Positions 90-20,000 of a stretch of 20,000 nucleotides of DNA are shown piece by piece. Below the pieces are notes generated by a model. That model did not search any database, was not told the DNA's origin, and saw nothing but the letters and a program-made list of their open reading frames with translations. This DNA is from Atractiella rhizophila. Lineage: Eukaryota. Position 1 is the first letter of the stretch. Each line of letters opens with the position of its first letter. Both the position numbers and the translations under genes were made by a program. The stretch spans positions 50,210-70,209 of the forward strand of contig MU271411.1 of assembly GCA_021432655.1 (NCBI GenBank), given 5' to 3'.

Positions 90-3000
90 CTACATCGTTG
101 TTTTCTTGCCCCCTAGCCGGAACGTTTTTCTGAGACTGAGATTGCTCTTGGCTCGTGGAAGCCGTAGACCTCTGACCCCTAAACGTTTCGACATCTTTGC
201 CCGCCACTATAAGCGATTAGAAAACGGCTGCTGAAGAACAGTTGAAGCACCTCTCACATCGTCTACCTTTTCTAGGTCACGGTTCCCAGATGTCTCTGAC
301 TCATCCGTTTCGCTTGTCACACTAGCAGCCGATGAAACCTCTTTGATGTCCCAATTGCGATGACTGGCGCCGGGTAAAGCATCGTTGCTTTCATGAACAG
401 GTTCGTCTTCTGCACTGCTCTCATCTTCGCTATCCCCATCTCCAGTGCTATTGCCGTCATCCTCCTCACTATCGCTGTGAGGAGTACGAACATCCGTCGA
501 AGGCCGTGTTATTGCGATTGACGGTGCGGTGCCTCCAACAGCACTCGTGCTAGCACTCGTTGACGGAAGAGAAGGTCCGGCAGGATGGGGTCGAGGAGTC
601 TCTGGGACGTCCTCTTGCGCGGCCGGAGGGAGAATCTCGTCATTCGCTTCCTCCTCATCGGAGCTATCGCTGTCATCATCCGCGTCGCTCGAACTAATAG
701 ACGAACCCTCTTCCTCAGATGCCACATGGTGGAATGGCTGAGGATCTGGCGTTGAGGCTGAAGCGTCTTCAGCGACACTCTCTGCATCTTTGGCGACGCT
801 CTCTACATCATCTGAGTCCTCAGATTCGGTCAGCGGTTGAGATTGAGTAGACGAAGACTGTGGTGGAGGGTCGACGGCTGGTGGAGTAGACAGTGATTGG
901 GCGACCGGAGCTTGTGTTCGGGAAGATATTTCAAGTAGAATTGTAGCGTCCGCTTGGTCATCTTCGCTGTCGTCTTCTGAATCTGGGGGACTGGACGTGG
1001 GCTGAAGCTCTGGTTCAGCTGTTTCTGGGGCTGGTCCCACCGTCTTCGTCGATATAATTCTCTTCCACAAGCAGATATGAGACGTACTTGTTGTCACAGG
1101 AGACGGAACGCCATCACCAGTTGCAGCCTCCCTCTTCCAAGTCTTTTCTGAATTCAGTAGCGAGCCTAGTTCTTCCACTATATTACTCTGTGCCGCCTCT
1201 GCAACGTCGGGAGGAGGCGCTGTCGCCTCTGTCACTTTCCCACCAACCTTCTCCTCGAACTCGTCGCCCCTTTCCAGCAACTCTCCACCATCAGATCCAG
1301 TCTTCACATTCATCTCTCCGTTCCCTCTACTCTCTTCAGCGCCCTCCTCATCCGAGTCTTCTGCCAGAACAGGTGCCAAATGCTGAGCGTCATCTTGCGA
1401 AATACTGCGAGCTTCTGTATCCTCAGCATCGCTTTCGTCTGAGCTGTCTAAATCGTGAGGTGCCGTGCTCGCCGTTGCATCTGGCACATTGCCGATAGCG
1501 TCAACTTCTTCGACTGACCCTTTTTGCTGCACAAATTCATTGTCTCTTCCAACCTCCTCCACCTCATCTCGTAGGAAAGGATCTCCCCCCACAGCGATGT
1601 CGGTAGTGGCCTCTCTGTCTTCCTCGTCCCCGCCATCAGAAAACTCGGATCCCTCCCCGTCAGCTATTACCTCCTCTTCGCCATCGGATTGCTCGGTTGG
1701 AGCTGTCTTTGGCACTTCCATCAATGCCGGCTGCACAAGCTCCACGCTTGTTGCCTGACTTGGAGGTGCAGCCTGCTCGGTTGGTGATCGCGCCACCTCC
1801 TCAGTTTCTTCCTTTTCTTCCTCATCCGATTGCTCAGCCAGAGCCAACGCATGAGCCGAAGTCACCTCCGCTTCTCCTTCACTGTCACTATCCTCTTCCT
1901 CCTCAGACTGTTCTGCCTCCGTGCCTGCCTGTGTTGAAGCTACCTTCAAAAGGGATCCTTTTCTCTCACCCTCTTCCGCCTTCAACGCTTCTGGCACTGC
2001 GGAATCCGGCGCAGGAGCATGTCTCGAGACAGTCACATCAGTTTCACTCTCGTCTTCATCCTCCTCTTCGTCCTCCTCGTCTGAATCATTAGCTACCTTG
2101 AGAGACTGTTCCGAAAGCACCTCCTTGCCAGCCGCTCGTTCTCCTGGCTCGTTTGCCTCATTAGCGGCCTGAGGAGAGTGTGCAGGAAGCAACGGCTTGC
2201 CAGCAGCTTCTTCGCTCTCTTCATCCTCCTCGTCTGACTCCTCAGATGAGTCGCTGTCGTGTTCCGAGGGGGCCACTTTTGCTGCTGAGTCTGTAGCATC
2301 CTCTTCAGAACTTTCCGCATCTTCTTCGTCCGAATCATCCGCCTCCCAGATCATCTTGACCACTCTGGCCGCATCCTCCCTCAAACTCTTCCCACTCTCT
2401 CCTTCACCCGCTCCATCTTTCGTTCGTTCATCAGTGAACCAGCCTACAACAGCCTCCTTCGTGATAACTTCTTCTTCCCAAAAGGTGGCAATCAAGCGGG
2501 CAAAGATAGGACGGTGAGATTCATGAGAGGCACAAAACTGTTGCATGGCGAGAAGGATATCGATTCCGGACTTCGTTGGTTCTTCCAACCAGGCCGAAAC
2601 GAGAGGGTTCCACTTCGCAATCACGTTTCGAGCGCGATCAGCCGTCTCTTTCGGAGTTGCAGCGGGTTCGATACGCTCGACCAGGAATCCGATCACGGTA
2701 CGTAGTACAAGGGAATTTTCGACGTTGCTTGATAAACGCAAGGTCTTGAGTTCGATGATGGTCGTCTCCGGTTGAAGGTTCTCGTCGTAAGCACGCCTGA
2801 GAGACTCGAGACAATGCACAATGAACTTTTGGTTTTTCTGTTCGACGGCTGCATTGCCCGAAAGGGACTCGATGTTGGCAATCGCAGGAGCCTCAAATTC
2901 GGAAGAGGGACCGGAAGAAAGGGATTCAGAGGCTGAGGAGGACGATCGCGAGCGGCCAGAAATGGATGAACTCGATGAAGCGGTTGAAGCAGCATAGTCG

Positions 3001-5176
3001 GCGCGTCTGGATCCTAAGTAGGCGTCAGTGGAGGAAGCGGCGAGCGGAATTTCCTACCTAGGTTGTAAAATATTTCCATCCTCTTGTCCCAATCCTCATC
3101 TTCCTCATCCTCCTCGTCTTCTTCGTCCACATCGTGAGGTTTCGACCATATCCACCCTTTGACTCCATCAACTCCTTCTCCCTCATCATCATCCCATCCG
3201 ATCCACAGATCTTCCACCTCCGCACCTTCATGTACCTCCACTTCATCGCCCAGGATGCAATTCAGAACCCTTGCTCCGCCCTCGATGACTACGCCTTCTG
3301 AAACAACACTATCCTTCACCACTGCACCTTCGCCAATTACTGCACCTGCCATGACGAAAGAGTTGTCGATGCTCGCTCTCATGCCGATCGTGACATTGGG
3401 GGAAATGGAAGAGCGGGAAATAGTTGCGGACGATCCGATATTGGCAGACGAAGAGATGATGGCCGACGGACCAAGCCTCGCCGAACTGTCAAACACTCAT
3501 ATCAACAACGACCAAGTTAGGATGACGAATACACACGAATGTACGCTCGCTGAGCTGGAAAGGAACACCTTCCTGGGGCGTAAATCAAATGTTGATGCTT
3601 CTTCAGGCAAGAGGTTGTCAAGACTTAATGGATAGAACCAGCGGCCGGTGATTGCTTCTCGAACGGATTGCCAACTTTTTGGACTCGAGAGGATTGCGGC
3701 GTATTCTCCGGTTTCGGATGGGGACGAAGAGTTGATGGTCGAACATCGCATGGTAAGGTCGAGGATATCAGACTGTAAGACACCGCGAACGAAGTCGGGA
3801 AAGATGGTTTGCCAGTCGAAATTCTCCGTGAATTGAGCTGGGACCTGTTTGCAACAAATATTAGACTACAACTGCAAATTCATCATGCGCCAACGGGTCA
3901 CAAACCTCTCCGGTACAAATCCAGACTCCGAGACTACTCAGACCAGTATTCATGACGACCTCTTTCCCGTCCGACAGTATCTCTTTGGGGACCTTTAACC
4001 GCCCAGTCAGACCCTTTGCTTTGGGGTATTTCGGCGTCTCTGAGTAGTGGACGAGTCCTCCTTGAGGAGTTGTCACGAAGCAAGTAAGGACTTCCTTAGT
4101 CTATCGCATAGCAATTGTCAGCGTTACCCAACATTGGAGTGGGGAAGGTCCGACGCACCCGATGCCGATCGACTCTCTCACCAGTGCATCCATGACCAGT
4201 TTCGGGTCTTTCTTCCGCAGGGCTCCAAATTGTGCGCATCGTTCGGTGAGAGGGATGTTACCAATGTAGCCCGCTTGAACGAGGAGAAATTCACGACCGA
4301 TGTCGAGAAGATTGAGGGAGTCGATTTCTCGAAGGACGTCTCCTACTGAGAGACATTGGGTCTGGCGAAGCGTTATTCGCAGACTTGAAGAAGGTAGAGT
4401 GCTGCAGCAAATCAGTGATGTAAGAGAAGGTACAGTGCAGGTACGTACGAGAGGTAGTCGCGGATGAAGGGATGACCACGCCGAGCGAATATTATTACTT
4501 CTTCGACACCTCCAAGCGCGAGTGACTGAAGTGTCCAGCTCAGGATTGGAAAGTCGAGGAATTTCAGGAGGCACTGTTAAACCAGCTCATCAATCAGCGG
4601 AAGTTGAGGACGAAGAGCACTGTCGTCGGCAGAATCAAGGGAAAGGAAGGTCAAGAAGGTGGGGCAGAAGACCTCACTAGGTAAAAGGGTTCTGGAGTCA
4701 TCGCCCTTCAGGTTTGCACTCGGCAAATGATATCCAATATAATATAATGAAACGATGCTTGATTTAATGACATTAATGGTTAATTTTGAAGCGAACGATT
4801 TGAGAAAATAATGCCTTGGTTTGACAGAATAACGCCCGATTGATAAAACCAATGGTTCGTCCGATAAATAATTAATGGTTTGAAAAACCCATTCTTGATT
4901 TGACATCCAGTCTGAAAAGAAGACTGGACATGAGAAGCTACAGCTTATGAAGCTCAAATTTCACATAATGCTAAATCATAAAAGCAAAAAGCAACGTAGA
5001 TCGATCAAATTGCACTGAAGAGAACGCACCCATGGCTTCCCTTCTACGTCCTCCTCATCATTATCAACAAGAGGACCCCAATAATGCACAGCTTCTTCTG
5101 TGAGATCAGCAAATACTACTGCCTGAAGCGGCAGCTCTTGGATGGTATCTTCTTTCGAGTCCTTCCCTGCTGCCAT
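90..5176 (-). CDS. GCD6: Translation initiation factor eIF2B epsilon subunit, multi-exon, with long acidic C-terminal extension
   Basis: ATG at 5176. Exon 5030-5176 (PLQAVVFAD...PW), exon 4449-4573 (CLLKFLDFPILSWTLQSL), exon from 4401 (SVGDVLREID; donor near 4154-4181 ambiguous), exon 3906-4100 (LVHYSE), exon 3537-3844 (FTENFDWQ motif, RWFYPL), exon 3058-3485 (hexapeptide left-handed beta-helix), then from 3013 the W2/HEAT domain (IELKTLRLSSN, FWEEEVITKEAVVGWF, WEADDSDEE). The ORF stop at 207 is the TAG of a likely intron (CTAAT branch), so the CDS probably ends at 90, or at 22 with the alternative donor. A possible in-frame intron lies near 1031-1087. Confidence 0.92.
4574..5029 (-). other. 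Oversized (456 nt) first intron of GCD6 with AT-rich core
   Basis: GTGCGT donor at 5029, CTGAT branch and AACAG acceptor at 4574. Splicing joins KPW|CLL in frame. Most other introns here are about 45-90 nt. Confidence 0.85.
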
Positions 5177-5472
5177 GTTTCTGACGTTTGGTGGATGTTC
5201 TCGGGTGCGAGATCGGTGGGAGGTGCAGTGATTGGGATCGTCGCACATGGACTGCTGCTGCTGCTGGTGGGGGAGGTGAGCAAGATGTCCCTACGTGCTG
5301 AATGATATCAGTTGCTGAATATGATGAGCTTTTGTTGTGACTGGGAAGAAACTAGGGCAGGACTACAGCCATGGTCATAGTCGCATCCGCAGCATCATAA
5401 ACGAAACGACGACGCGTCTTCCAACTACTAACCGACTTGTGTCAGTCGATAGCTAGCTAAACTCAGCCCAAC
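5177..5472. promoter_or_regulatory. Probable bidirectional promoter shared by GCD6 and RPN10
   Basis: The two ATGs (5176 minus, 5473 plus) diverge only 296 bp apart. No specific motif identified. Confidence 0.6.
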
Positions 5473-7625
5473 ATGCCGCTCGAAGCTACTATGATCCTGT
5501 ATCTTCTTTCTAGTTTTTGTGTAATCCAAAGAAACTGACGAGCGGTAGGCTTGACAACTCTTCCCACTCCATAAACGGCGATTACCTCCCTACTCGCTTC
5601 CAAGCTCAATCCGACGCTTCGACCATTGTTTTTAATAGGAAAACAGGTAGCAATCCTGAGAGTGAGGTTGGACTGATGACTATGGCTGGGAAGGGGTGAG
5701 TCTCTGCTTCTTGTTGTGCTTGTGCAGGTTGTGGGAAGGAGAGTTGTTTCTTTCTTATTTCACCTTGTTATCCAAAAGAGAGTTGTCAATCTGACCCCCC
5801 TCTTGATGGCCTTTGAGCGAAATGTCTGATGAAGCTGAAACGGAGACACATTGAAACCAACCCGGAGTGTGCTCGTTTTGTAGCCCAACTAGGTTTCTTC
5901 CTGTAGACAATCGAATGTCTATTTCTGTGCATATTATAGGCGTAGTCTGCTTTGATATCTTGTGCCCTTATCATCATACGCGCATGCTCCCGTCGAGGCG
6001 GGAATTGAAAGCGTCTGAGTGACTTTCGTTCCGAATCCTGAACTGCTGGAACCTTACCGCTCACGCTTGTGCCAACTGTGGCGATTATTCTTGGATAAAA
6101 CCAGATCGTATTGAATGTTTCATGCGGCTGCTGATGGTGATCATGGAGACTATTCTCTAGTACAGAGCCACGGGGAAACATTTGGATTAGCCTACATTCG
6201 CTTAGTAGGTAGCTCAGAGTTACTTTCCCTTACACATTGACCGCTGGGAGTATGTTGTTATCTCGGTCTTATCGCGCATCAATCTCTTTGTGCAATATGC
6301 GTCATTCAAGTGGAGCCATTTCTGCACCATGGGATGGCGAATTGATTAGCCATTGGGCAGCTTGAATAACCCGCGCAAAAGTGGTCAATGGTTTCCCTCT
6401 ACGAAGAAAATAATAATCTGTTGATCTCAACTGATTGGCTCGCAGGCCAGAAGTTTTGGTTACCCCGACAAAAGAACTCGGAGCCATTCTGACGAGTATA
6501 CACGAGATCAAACAATCTGGAGAAGCCGATTTTGTGACTTCTATCCAAGTTGCACAAGTACGCATCAATAGTGCACGATTTCTCCCGACCTGACCTGTCA
6601 ACAGCTAGCGCTCAAACATCGGTCGAACAAGAACCAGCGGCAACGTCTTGTCATCTTCGTCTCTTCCCCTCTAACCTCACCATCAACCTCAGTAGGCAAT
6701 CTCGAAAAGCTGGCGAAGAAGATTAAGAAGAACAACGTCGCTGTGGATATTGTACTCCTCGATGGATATGGGGCGGAAGAAGCAGAAATCTTAGCTGCGT
6801 TGGGAGGGAAAGGGAGCGGTGGGGAGACCACCGAAGAGCGTTTGAGGAAGTTTATTGAAGGGGTCAATAGCAGCGATGATAACAGGTCAGTTCCCCATCT
6901 GTCTATCGGAGGAGACTGACTCAAAGACGTCAGCCATCTTCTCGTCGTTCCTCCCGGCGTTGGTCTCCTCTCCGACATACTCATCTCTTCCCCCATTCTA
7001 TCAGAAGACATGCCTGGCGGCTTCGGCGACGGCGGCGGAGACGTCGCTGCTGGTGGAAGTGGAGCATTCGCGGATTCAGGAGGCATCGATCCGAACGCAG
7101 ATCCAGAACTGGCTATGGCACTTCGGATGTCTCTAGAAGAGGAGCAGGCCCGTCAACGAGCCGCCGCCGCTTCTTCGTCTTCGTCCACGAGCGCTGAAGT
7201 ACAAGCTCAAACTTCAAACGCTGCTCCTGTGGAGGATGCGGATACCGCTGATGCTCCGGCTGGGAAGGCGCTAGCTCAGTCGAAGAAGCGTAGTGGATCC
7301 ACTACACCGAGAGCGAAGACTCCACCGCCCGCAAAAAGGCAGAGAGAGGATGAGGATATCGACATGGAGGGAGACGATGATGCGGAGGAAGATGATGAAT
7401 TGGCACGGGCGTTGGCTCTCAGTCGAGGTGGTGCGTCACTCGTCCCCTGTCCTGATGCAGAATTGAAATAACGCCGGAGTAGACGATAACGCCGGAGTAG
7501 ACGATGACGTCGACATGGAGGGTGATGATGAAGGCGGAGCAGAAGAGGAAGAGATGAAGCGAGCATTGGCTATGAGCTTGAGAGATTACGAGAACGAGGA
7601 CAAGAATCAAGAGAGGCAGGAATAA
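5473..7625 (+). CDS. RPN10: 26S proteasome regulatory subunit Rpn10 (vWA domain + UIMs)
   Basis: Exons 5473-5498, 5549-5695, 6446-6557, 6605-6885, 6934-7430 and 7483(or 7501)-7625. They give [29 protein letters not shown]...[15 protein letters not shown]...[16 protein letters not shown]...[10 protein letters not shown], then UIMs [28 protein letters not shown] and [10 protein letters not shown]. Confidence 0.96.
5696..6445 (+). other. Oversized (750 nt) intron 2 of RPN10, candidate structured intronic RNA
   Basis: GTGAGT donor at 5696, CTGAT branch and CGCAG acceptor at 6445 join GKG|PEVL in frame. Many complementary segments found by eye (see findings). The intron is well supported; the ncRNA interpretation is tentative. 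Confidence 0.6.
7468..7503 (+). repeat. Perfect 18-bp tandem duplication across the last 3' splice site of RPN10
   Basis: ATAACGCCGGAGTAGACG occurs twice (7468-7485, 7486-7503). The AG acceptors at 7481-7482 and 7499-7500 are in the same frame. Confidence 0.9.
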
Positions 7626-16206: not shown

Positions 16207-17412
<1,206 letters not shown>

Positions 17413-17790: not shown

Positions 17791-20000
17791 TTAGCCAATG
17801 TGTGTAGTGGCAAAGAACCTCACGACCTCCCAAAACTTGGGCAGCATCTCTTCCCCCTCCTCCACCTGGATGCCCTCCGCGCGCACATCGCTCTTCAATC
17901 CTGCGCCTTTCCTCTCGCGATTCAAGGCTGCCAGACCATTCCACTTCCCTACCAAATCTCGCCGTAGCTTCTCCACCGTCACCCCTTCCTCACGGAACTT
18001 GTCGCCAAAGATTTTATTCTGGAACATCACCAACACATTGATCGCTAAGCAGGAGGTAACGGGAAGTATTGGATCGGATGACAGAGAATAGGCCAGAATG
18101 AGAGATGTTGCCGGAGGGACAATGGGACGGGATGGAGTGCGCCAACGCCAAACGGAAGAGTGAAAAGAGTGAATGTTCGTTATTGTGCCCATGAAGGGTA
18201 GATGCATGACGATGTTCCGTCGTGCGTTCGTGTCGATTAGCTGCCCTTTGCAGAGGGCTTCGCGTTTTTGGTTGGGAGGAGGGATCTCGGCAATATCTGA
18301 GTCGGCTGGACTTGTGGAGACTTCTTCTAGCAACTGACGCTGGCGTAGAACTGAGAAATGAGGAAACGATGTTTCATCAACTGAGACGAGGGTGAGATGG
18401 GCCGGCCGGTCGTAGATCGTGAAATCTTTGGATTTCGAGAAACTAATCCAAGCTTCACACAATTTCAGTTCCTGCCACCATATTAGAGAGAACGTAAGAG
18501 CATTCATACCTTTCATTTCCGGCCATCCTAGCTCCTCCGCCCTTCTTACAATCGCAATAGTCCTCCAAGCAGTATTGCTATTCTCCAGTGCATTAGCTCG
18601 GATCGTCTTCCACACCGTCTCCACCCTCTCTCTCTCTTGAGTTAGCTTCTTCTTCACAGCCACTCCATCTTCATTGTACGACAACCAGCTCTCGCCTTCC
18701 ACCCGGCAGACAGAAAAGTCTCTTCCTTCTCCTCGGTCGTCCTCCCAACAGACGAGCAACCTTTCTACCAACTTGCCATCTTCAGTATTTTTCGTCTCTT
18801 CATTGACTGTGTCCTTGACGGAAGGCAGAAAGCAGTAACCGACAAATAACACTCGCCCTTCGTTCATGTGGACTCCGCTTGGCGCTGTAGGAACGAGCTT
18901 CTTGAGAAACGGTCTCGTCCGTTCTCCGAAAACTGAAGCCAAGTTTGCGTCGTCTTCTGATAGGGTGAAAGAAGGGTGATAGAAATAACGCAAATGTTCA
19001 GCTTTATCCAGCTTCGCCTTTGCAGACTCGTCCTCCGCTATTCGTGGCCCATCCTCCGTATCCTCCGTCAGGTCTATGATTTCTCGTGGACGAGTTTCGA
19101 CGACGAGGGGAACAAGCCGTTTGGGACTATGTCGCCAAACTGGCATGTAGATCTGATCGTAAGTATTGAAAGACAGATGACGGAACCTAGCTGCCGCAGA
19201 TGGAGGCATGGGACCATCTGTTGCGACGCCGCTGAGACTTGTGATGAAGGTCGAACGATCAATGATGTGGATGTGAACCTTAGTCTTTGCGCCAATCAGT
19301 TTACGAATTTGAAGTGTAAGATCCACGACACCGGTCCCGCTCAGAACAAATATTACAGCAGAAGAGGATTTTGGGGTCGTAGTAGAAACATTGGTACCTG
19401 CGGGTGATGGCTCAGGATGAACAACCATGGGTGATAAATACTTACAGAGGTCAGTCAGATACTTAATTCGATCTGGAGTATCATAGGAAGGAAGCATAGC
19501 GACACTGTTGCTAGAAAAGGGTTGGAGGTCACCAAGGTATGAGTCCTGAGAATTTGTGAGGATTAACATAACCTAACTTATTCGAACACGCACACTATAG
19601 ACTTGCGCTAATTCATCGAGCCAGGCTGACCCTTTTGACTTCAGGGCTAAATCTGCTGGCTCCAGCAATAAGAGCGCATTGATAGTCTTTGCACCATAAA
19701 CTGGTTCTAACTGAATGTTCTCCCAGAACCGCAAAGACACAGCAGAAAGCTTGACCGTCCAACCTTGATGACAGACATTGATCCTCGGCGCCTCCGTGAA
19801 CACAAATTGGTTTGCTTGATTGACAGATGCAGGAGAAATGAATGGACTACATGAATGTACCGCCAACAGCTGAACCGCGTGCAATGATGATGGAACGGAA
19901 ACTGTAACAAGAGATATAAGACAAAGGAGGAAGCTGACAAGTGACGTACCAGACTCAGAAATGGATGGGGATGGGAATACATTGTCAGTTGCAAATAAAT
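17791..20000 (-). CDS. SSN2: Mediator kinase-module subunit Med13, 3' portion (gene starts beyond the window)
   Basis: Med13-like motif SLRFWENIQLEPVYGAKTINA, then LFVGYCF, LLVCWEDDRGE and WRTIAIVR...EMKAW, and a C-terminal 'LAAL...LP' pattern. Introns at 19902-19949, 19546-19593 and in-frame 18453-18509. Confidence 0.82.

Follow-up and report, generated by a model that had tools for sequence, protein, structure and literature searches.

The eIF2B-epsilon gene and its transcript

The 20,000-nucleotide stretch of DNA from the root fungus Atractiella rhizophila analysed here (assembly GCA_021432655.1, contig MU271411.1, positions 50,210 to 70,209 of the forward strand; hereafter the window, whose own numbering is used below) carries on its minus strand a gene for the epsilon subunit of the translation factor eIF2B (GCD6), in which a long acidic tail follows the W2 domain. 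The list of open reading frames of the window gives an unspliced minus-strand frame of 948 aa at 207..3053, in which a Pfam search recovered W2 (PF02020, E=7.8e-12, 45.5 bits for a cut-off of 30), and the preceding exon encodes the left-handed beta-helix (LbH) domain (PF25084, LbH_EIF2B, E=7.4e-17, 61.7 bits, cut-off 54). One spliced contig of sequencing run X12 joins both exons, which therefore sit in the same transcript. The putative nucleotidyltransferase-like N-terminus shows the motifs of the family, including an LQAVVFAD motif that fits the alignment consensus; two of its exons searched singly gave no Pfam match, and the assembly is one base off frame at 4159/4100. The W2/HEAT catalytic domain spans 2319..2855, with acidic/aromatic box (AA-box) 1 at 2436-2483 and AA-box 2 at 2319-2363, as placed by PF02020, the alignment to yeast Gcd6, AlphaFold2 (AF2) and Foldseek. 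Its ELKTLR motif is invariant across 17 aligned sequences, as is the Glu at 2751-2753 (minus strand) aligned to E569 of yeast Gcd6, a residue that we take to be catalytic. In an AF2 model of 1089-2900, W2 is folded with a per-residue confidence (pLDDT) mostly above 90, and the top Foldseek matches are C-terminal domains of eIF2B-epsilon, with a template-modelling (TM) score of 0.81 to 3JUI and 1PAQ. By family the gene is thus an ordinary eIF2B-epsilon, with a W2 fold that is intact in the model. The W2 protein and the tail DNA each match once in their own assembly and no other eIF2B-epsilon was found there; loci similar to other eIF2B subunits are present in the genome, and guanine nucleotide exchange activity within the decamer is predicted from sequence. 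The public protein P0001, a hypothetical protein of Atractiella rhizophila (Pucciniomycotina), is identical across the W2 region.

RNA evidence comes from 4 of the 12 sequencing runs found, which were aligned to the window, all as contigs, and which show spliced joints in three cases (X1, X2 and X12); that X1 is an RNA run is a guess. Once spliced, the model comprises nine exons, starts at the ATG at 5176 and gives 1,420 aa, 714 of which follow the "WE" that marks the end of W2, so the gene probably encodes a protein of about 1,420 aa and the original prediction of a product about twice the normal size is supported. Exon 1 (5030..5176), with the LQAVVFAD N-terminus, is placed by a loose end of X12 at 4574 that matches 5031 onward. 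The nucleotidyltransferase-like part occupies exons 2-5 (3537..4573, namely 4449-4573, 4159-4401, 3906-4100 and 3537-3844; joints 4401/4449, 4100/4159 and 3485/3537, loose ends 3846 and 3904), and exon 6 (3058..3485, joint 3012/3057) encodes the LbH domain and an acidic linker. The first intron (4574-5029) measures 456 nt and the other seven 44-61 nt. Record 11 of X12 runs from 3220 over the joint 3057/3012 to 2014 at a depth of 404. A spliced transcript consequently crosses 2340 without a break, which is the continuity that had been proposed for an RNA check, and no splice to a stop just after W2 was seen. Record 10 of the same run extends from 1798 to 747 at a similar depth (452), and record 5 of X1 covers 1802-1952 gap-free at a depth of 4. 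An assembly artefact at 2340 was rejected, as a spliced contig that matches the window at about 98.5% identity passes over this position without a joint. A second gene or a paralogue as the source of the tail was also rejected, given the single genome matches of the W2 protein and of the tail DNA, with no internal start or transcript break seen.

The tail contains two introns. The first is a 57-nt in-frame GT-AG intron at 1031..1087, with its joint (1030/1088) present in X1, X2 and X12. The last intron (207..257, 51 nt) is found in X1 and X12, with alternatives of 44 nt (207-250, in X2) and 56 nt (195-250, minor in X12). The acceptor AG of the 51-nt form lies inside the TAG at 207-209, so that mRNAs, once spliced, continue beyond that apparent stop. 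The frame first described as ending at 207 is indeed open, and what was read as its stop is a splice acceptor. In the spliced translation, the 51-nt splice leads into a last exon (90..206) encoding a basic end of 38 aa (13 K/R, no D/E; stop at 90-92), while the 44- or 56-nt splice leads in another frame to a Ser/Thr/Gln-rich end that extends further than the basic form. With the alternative last joints the product has 1,441 or 1,445 aa, and 1,398 aa if the last intron is retained. By hand reading, the changes listed at 64 and 79 and the 3-nt loss at 28 fall behind the stop of the basic form and leave the 44/56-nt form in frame.

At the joint of exons 3 and 4 (4100/4159) the assembled sequence is a base too short to keep the frame; a contig of X12 holds one extra letter there, and the frame as assembled halts after 180 aa. 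Single-base gaps are frequent between paired gene copies of this assembly, one of them shifting the frame in an eIF2B-gamma-like copy (L118), and an assembly error is for this reason more likely than a dead allele. The pairing itself is common: many translation-factor genes occur in two near-identical copies (~98-99.7%; C1/C353, C27/C354, C175/C277, C454/C724, C102/C106, C518/C126/C1160), resembling a two-haplotype assembly, unlike eIF2B-epsilon, which was found as a single copy. The public model P0001 (707 aa) has its N-terminus in the wrong frame because of the missing base, and it ends about 150 aa past W2 through a 40-nt GC-AG "intron" (1877..1916, minus strand) that shifts the frame and then reaches a stop. 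This model is probably wrong at both ends; surveys of databases would accordingly undercount such tails.

Composition of the tail

In the unspliced frame, 711 residues follow "WE" (2342..210), in agreement with the roughly 710 open codons reported at first; 27.7% of them are Asp or Glu (D+E) and their net charge is -157. The five other frames over 207-2342 contain 14-57 stops each. The distal 534 codons are open and display a coding-type base bias by codon position, and the longest open frame in base shuffles averaged 104 codons with a maximum of 277 (2000 trials). Without the 57-nt intron, the acidic tail (258..2342, minus strand; from the block scan, the translation and the contigs) comprises 676 aa with 13 Ser-acid blocks separated by Ala/Pro/Ser/Thr spacers, the first block at 2319-2339 and the last at 414-434. 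Shuffled tails gave 4.1±1.8 blocks, which bears out the alternation of Ser-acid clusters and Ala/Pro spacers initially described. Similarly, S[DE][SDE][DE] occurs 15 times (3.3±1.8 in shuffles) and [ST][DE]x[DE] 24 times (11.3±3.0), and for each of the three counts none of 2000 shuffles was as high.

Part of the internal duplication noticed at first can be traced at the DNA level: a diverged tandem duplication (AAGKPLL/AAGKEVL; 2076..2213, minus strand) was returned by a repeat finder as 66-nt copies at 2076-2141 and 2148-2213, with a period of 72 nt and 73% identity. The other part, the ESVAKDAESVAEDA repeat, is readable in the translation but was returned by neither of two repeat finders. 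Together with a 39-nt acid-block repeat family, the 66-nt duplication shows the mode by which the tail grew. Its blocks resemble the short Ser-acid segment that closes W2 in nearly all orthologues, the CK2-regulated end of AA-box 2, and they have neither the aromatic residues nor the helix packed on the folded W2 surface (7 F/W/Y among the 676 residues, and one helix in the modelled part). The blocks are thus copies of the acidic half of AA-box 2 only, and not full AA-boxes.

The tail is predicted to be disordered. In a charge-hydropathy plot it falls on the disordered side and W2 on the ordered side, and in the AF2 model the part at 1089-2324 has a pLDDT of about 45. The sole helix predicted in the modelled part (1122..1208, minus strand) has 29 aa with a pLDDT of up to ~74 and is possibly a docking element. 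A search of the ESM Atlas with the tail at 1089-2342 gave no usable match.

Elsewhere in the window, a plus-strand gene at 5408-7625 carries a ubiquitin-interacting motif (UIM) and is presumably RPN10-like. It has a 91%-identical copy (L099, G000:C16:73685-75844), and no second eIF2B-epsilon lies in the 9.9 kb before that copy. An exon of uracil phosphoribosyltransferase (PF14681) is found at 16933-17379 (plus strand), and a 593-codon open frame without a Pfam match at 17791-19572 (minus strand).

Tails in other species and the eIF2-beta partner

Long tails of this kind are not routine in basidiomycetes. In an orthologue set of 150 proteins, 149 matched the W2 profile; the 97 whose match extended to the profile end have a median of 12 residues after W2 (90th percentile 24), with one above 100, the non-acidic extension of Mixia. 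Of the 52 whose match stops short of that end, four carry acidic tails with a length of about 80-160 aa. In a metagenome set (80 loci, of which 54 were kept once 22 duplicates and 4 truncated rows had been set aside), the open codons after W2 ranged from 7 to 251 with a median of 16, a measure that introns would shorten. Seven of these loci exceed 50 codons, one through an insertion inside W2, three exceed 100 and none exceeds 300; the three longest (L087, L079 and L093, with 251, 137 and 110 open codons) display the same acidic block design. The Pucciniomycotina orthologues of Austropuccinia, Meredithblackwellia and Mixia are without a comparable tail.

A search restricted to proteins of 1,027-2,930 aa, in which 8,000 candidates were scored, returned 13 proteins. 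Five of them are long through fused domains. The block-and-spacer design recurs in the tails, roughly 350-770 aa in length, of six others, all from Agaricomycetes: Steccherinum ochraceum P0168, Abortiporus biennis P0169, Plicaturopsis crispa P0170, Panus rudis P0171, Cristinia sonorae P0172 and Tephrocybe rancida P0174. The block pattern stands above shuffles in all six as well as in Atractiella rhizophila. The long tail is therefore unusual, yet not unique to this species, and tails of 60-250 aa bridge the short and long forms as a continuum. P0168 has 1,026 residues after W2, which close in a hydrolase-like stretch; after its acidic tail, a Lys/Arg-rich stretch (residues ~1380-1500) resembles the basic splice form of Atractiella rhizophila. 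Two weak matches from Mortierella (P0179 and P0180), putative eIF2B-epsilon, are W2 proteins of 1,065-1,170 aa in which W2 is followed by about 190 acidic residues; their tails have a short motif in common. Mixia P0016 (~190 aa after W2), P0153, P0173 and P0175-P0178 were excluded as acidic tails, being non-acidic extensions or fused domains.

The long tails align neither with one another nor with that of Atractiella rhizophila (best cross-match E>5). A metagenome scan using a single protein found no close relative with an alignable tail. The best W2 matches are only 29-38% identical. In a core tree of 42 rows, Atractiella rhizophila groups weakly with the named Pucciniomycotina (84-88 in the Shimodaira-Hasegawa-like approximate likelihood-ratio test, SH-aLRT) and outside the Agaricomycete group (99). 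A single clade of the seven long-tailed rows is rejected by the approximately unbiased test (p-AU 5e-8), a result partly driven by short and medium rows within the mushroom group and one in which gains and losses are indistinguishable. Since the tails cannot be aligned and the single clade is rejected, separate expansions in different lineages would be the simpler reading.

The W2 domain and the lysine box (K-box) of eIF2-beta are a textbook pair. In this genome, eIF2-beta (SUI3) lies at ~67.3-68.8 kb of contig C27 (G000:C27), with a second copy on C354 (PF01873 over cut-off; human eIF2-beta E=2.8e-46). Both copies, known from DNA alone, have six K-boxes that follow the pattern (D/E)(D/E)FxxL-Kn and are separated by Ala/Pro-rich spacers; a single exon encodes five of them, and the remaining one lies beyond a 60-nt intron. 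The K-box region (L005:2155-2745, minus strand, and L102; G000:C27:68104-68734 and C354:8010-8640) is identical in the two copies. In the ESM Atlas, the N-terminus of eIF2-beta had only matches below 0.9, and a PDB search gave nothing relevant. The eIF5 and 5MP-like W2 genes of the genome end a few residues past W2, and in a crude view of open reading frames a comparable acidic stretch is absent from seven loci of other eIF2B subunits and relatives. According to the literature, human and yeast eIF2-beta have three K-boxes (PMC12439599, PMC12224906, PMC9177959), and eIF5, eIF2B-epsilon and 5MP are each able to bind any of them (PMC12439599, PMC9177959). The K-box contact reaches into the disordered acidic tail of AA-box 2 and CK2 mimics increase the affinity of eIF2B-epsilon (PMC12439599), and hydrophobic helices beside the K-box bind the folded W2 surface (PMC12439599, PMC9177959). 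The extra K-boxes and the tail, considered together, suggest that the two partners hold each other through a larger charged contact, and the six-box eIF2-beta is the best hint of what the tail may do.

Possible role of the tail

The reading that we favour, with a probability of roughly 45%, is that the tail is a multiplied acidic tether matched to a larger number of K-boxes, which would favour eIF2B over eIF5 and 5MP. The C-terminus of eIF2B-epsilon would have been lengthened as the Ser-acid segment closing AA-box 2 was repeatedly duplicated and underwent slippage, resulting in a disordered polyanion of about 700 residues with about 13 acidic CK2-type blocks. These blocks might form fuzzy, weak and dynamic electrostatic contacts with the K-boxes; they would not be full binding sites, because such sites require the folded W2 surface. 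The contacts may tether eIF2-GDP near the catalytic W2 domain and thereby aid eIF2B against eIF5 and 5MP, both short-tailed in Atractiella rhizophila, with phosphorylation by CK2 as a possible dial of the strength of the tether. As the charge pattern would matter and the exact sequence would not, the length and sequence of the tail could drift fast. A wider proposal, which we consider rather doubtful, is that eIF2B-epsilon and eIF2-beta co-expanded into a multivalent, CK2-tunable charge zipper with more than one origin in basidiomycetes, altering the competition of eIF2B, eIF5 and 5MP for eIF2; in it, the basic spliced end could be a K-box mimic that switches the tail on and off.

Several observations weigh against the tether. 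In the tail, the generic consensus for CK2, [ST]xx[DE], shows no enrichment (41, for 39.0±4.6 in shuffles), so that, of the multiplied CK2-type sites originally proposed, the multiplication of the Ser-acid segment stands and that of the general consensus is at the level of chance. Counts of selection rest on 40 of 71 differences between runs and window that were listed, 32 of these lying in the tail or W2. Among them, 8 of 9 in W2 are synonymous (2.9 expected, P=0.0006). The tail has 9 of 23 (6.8 expected, P=0.21), made up of none of 5 in its proximal part and 9 of 18 beyond the public stop (5.4 expected, P=0.053). The 23 listed tail differences include no new stop, and for the four runs the list has no indel in the tail. 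These counts point weakly to a reading frame that is kept and an amino-acid sequence that is barely constrained, which argues against a sequence-specific function of the tail. The protein core also lies on a very long branch (2.02, median 0.53), which fits relaxed constraint overall. Moreover, the pairing of tail and K-boxes rests on one genome, and six boxes may be common in the group and unrelated to the tail. Finally, the contigs cover the whole tail except 1953-2013, X12 has no contig over 1799-2013, and no record spans the entire tail; some contigs were removed by filtering, and these holes are thus no evidence either way.

A close rival, which fits the weak constraint and the continuum of lengths nearly as well and which we regard as possible although tentative, is near-neutral growth, in which a slippage-prone acidic end past the last fold lengthens free of cost, only the frame and solubility are kept, and the K-boxes represent a separate expansion. 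Tail differences that fit the neutral expectation, a continuum of lengths from 7-251 aa in the 54 loci up to 770 in gene models, tails that do not align, an end spliced three ways into two frames and a fast-evolving core are all consistent with such growth. It accounts less well for a block-and-spacer design that recurs in separate lineages, for an expansion limited, among the factors examined, to the two partners of one interface, and for some 700 extra codons that stay open with a strong codon-position bias. It is improbable, in our view, that the tail mainly controls assembly, the polyanion on both epsilon subunits keeping eIF2B soluble at neutral pH or blocking the stacking of decamers, and its protonation on acidification of the cytosol shifting the threshold for filaments or bodies. 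A net charge of about -150 would suit this role, and a study of yeast reports eIF2B filaments triggered by acidification and suggests stacking via Gcd6 (10.1101/467829); however, eIF2B bodies in basidiomycetes have no support in the analysis, 7 aromatic residues in 676 provide few stickers, and the extra K-boxes are left unexplained.

Very unlikely, in turn, is a main product that ends about 150 aa past W2 through the 40-nt splice 1916-1877, with the remainder as 3' untranslated region or as a second transcript. P0001 ends in this manner and the holes in coverage would agree with it, but the joint is found in none of the four runs, its donor and acceptor match the consensus poorly, and record 5 of X1 is unspliced there, at a depth of 4 and in a run whose RNA status is guessed. 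The 534 downstream codons are open far beyond shuffles with a coding-type bias, and the same P0001 also starts in the wrong frame.

The observation matters since translation initiation has its rate-limiting control point in eIF2B. In current models, eIF2-beta has three K-boxes and each competitor (eIF5, eIF2B-epsilon and 5MP) a single short acidic tail; six K-boxes together with about 13 blocks on the exchange factor alone would constitute a natural test of whether the valency of the interface sets exchange and the displacement of eIF5. Basidiomycetes offer a natural gradation of tail length, between about 10 and 770 residues, and if the tail is dispensable it shows how much extra an essential factor tolerates. 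The family is well known; the long tail is new, with a design common to at least six other database models. No description of long fungal eIF2B-epsilon tails or of a six-box eIF2-beta was found in the literature, as covered by titles and the starts of abstracts, with few subscription journals and no supplements.

Compared with known systems, the protein of Atractiella rhizophila has a putative nucleotidyltransferase-like part, an LbH and a W2 domain in the same order as yeast Gcd6 (712 aa; 1PAQ, 6I3M) and the S. pombe (678 aa; 5B04) and human (721 aa; 3JUI, 6CAJ) proteins. It also has their ELxTLR motif, including the Glu that corresponds to yeast position 569, their W2 fold and their Ser-acid segment right after the last helix. 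These proteins end no more than about 10 residues past the last W2 helix, whereas that of Atractiella rhizophila continues for about 714, encoded across two introns and with more than one alternative end. At the positions of yeast W696 and W699 it has Val and Met, and many short-tailed basidiomycetes likewise lack these Trp. The Agaricomycete tails resemble its tail in their D+E content (22-31%), number of Ser-acid blocks (7-16) and Ala/Pro/Ser/Thr spacers; they differ in belonging to another subphylum and are known from annotation models alone. With the AA-box 2/K-box system, as set out in two studies (PMC12439599; PMC9177959), Atractiella rhizophila shares acidic Ser blocks on a W2 protein and eIF2-beta lysine boxes flanked by acidic and hydrophobic residues. 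In the known system each W2 protein has a single acidic tail and eIF2-beta three K-boxes, whereas Atractiella rhizophila has about 13 blocks, without the aromatic part, and six K-boxes.

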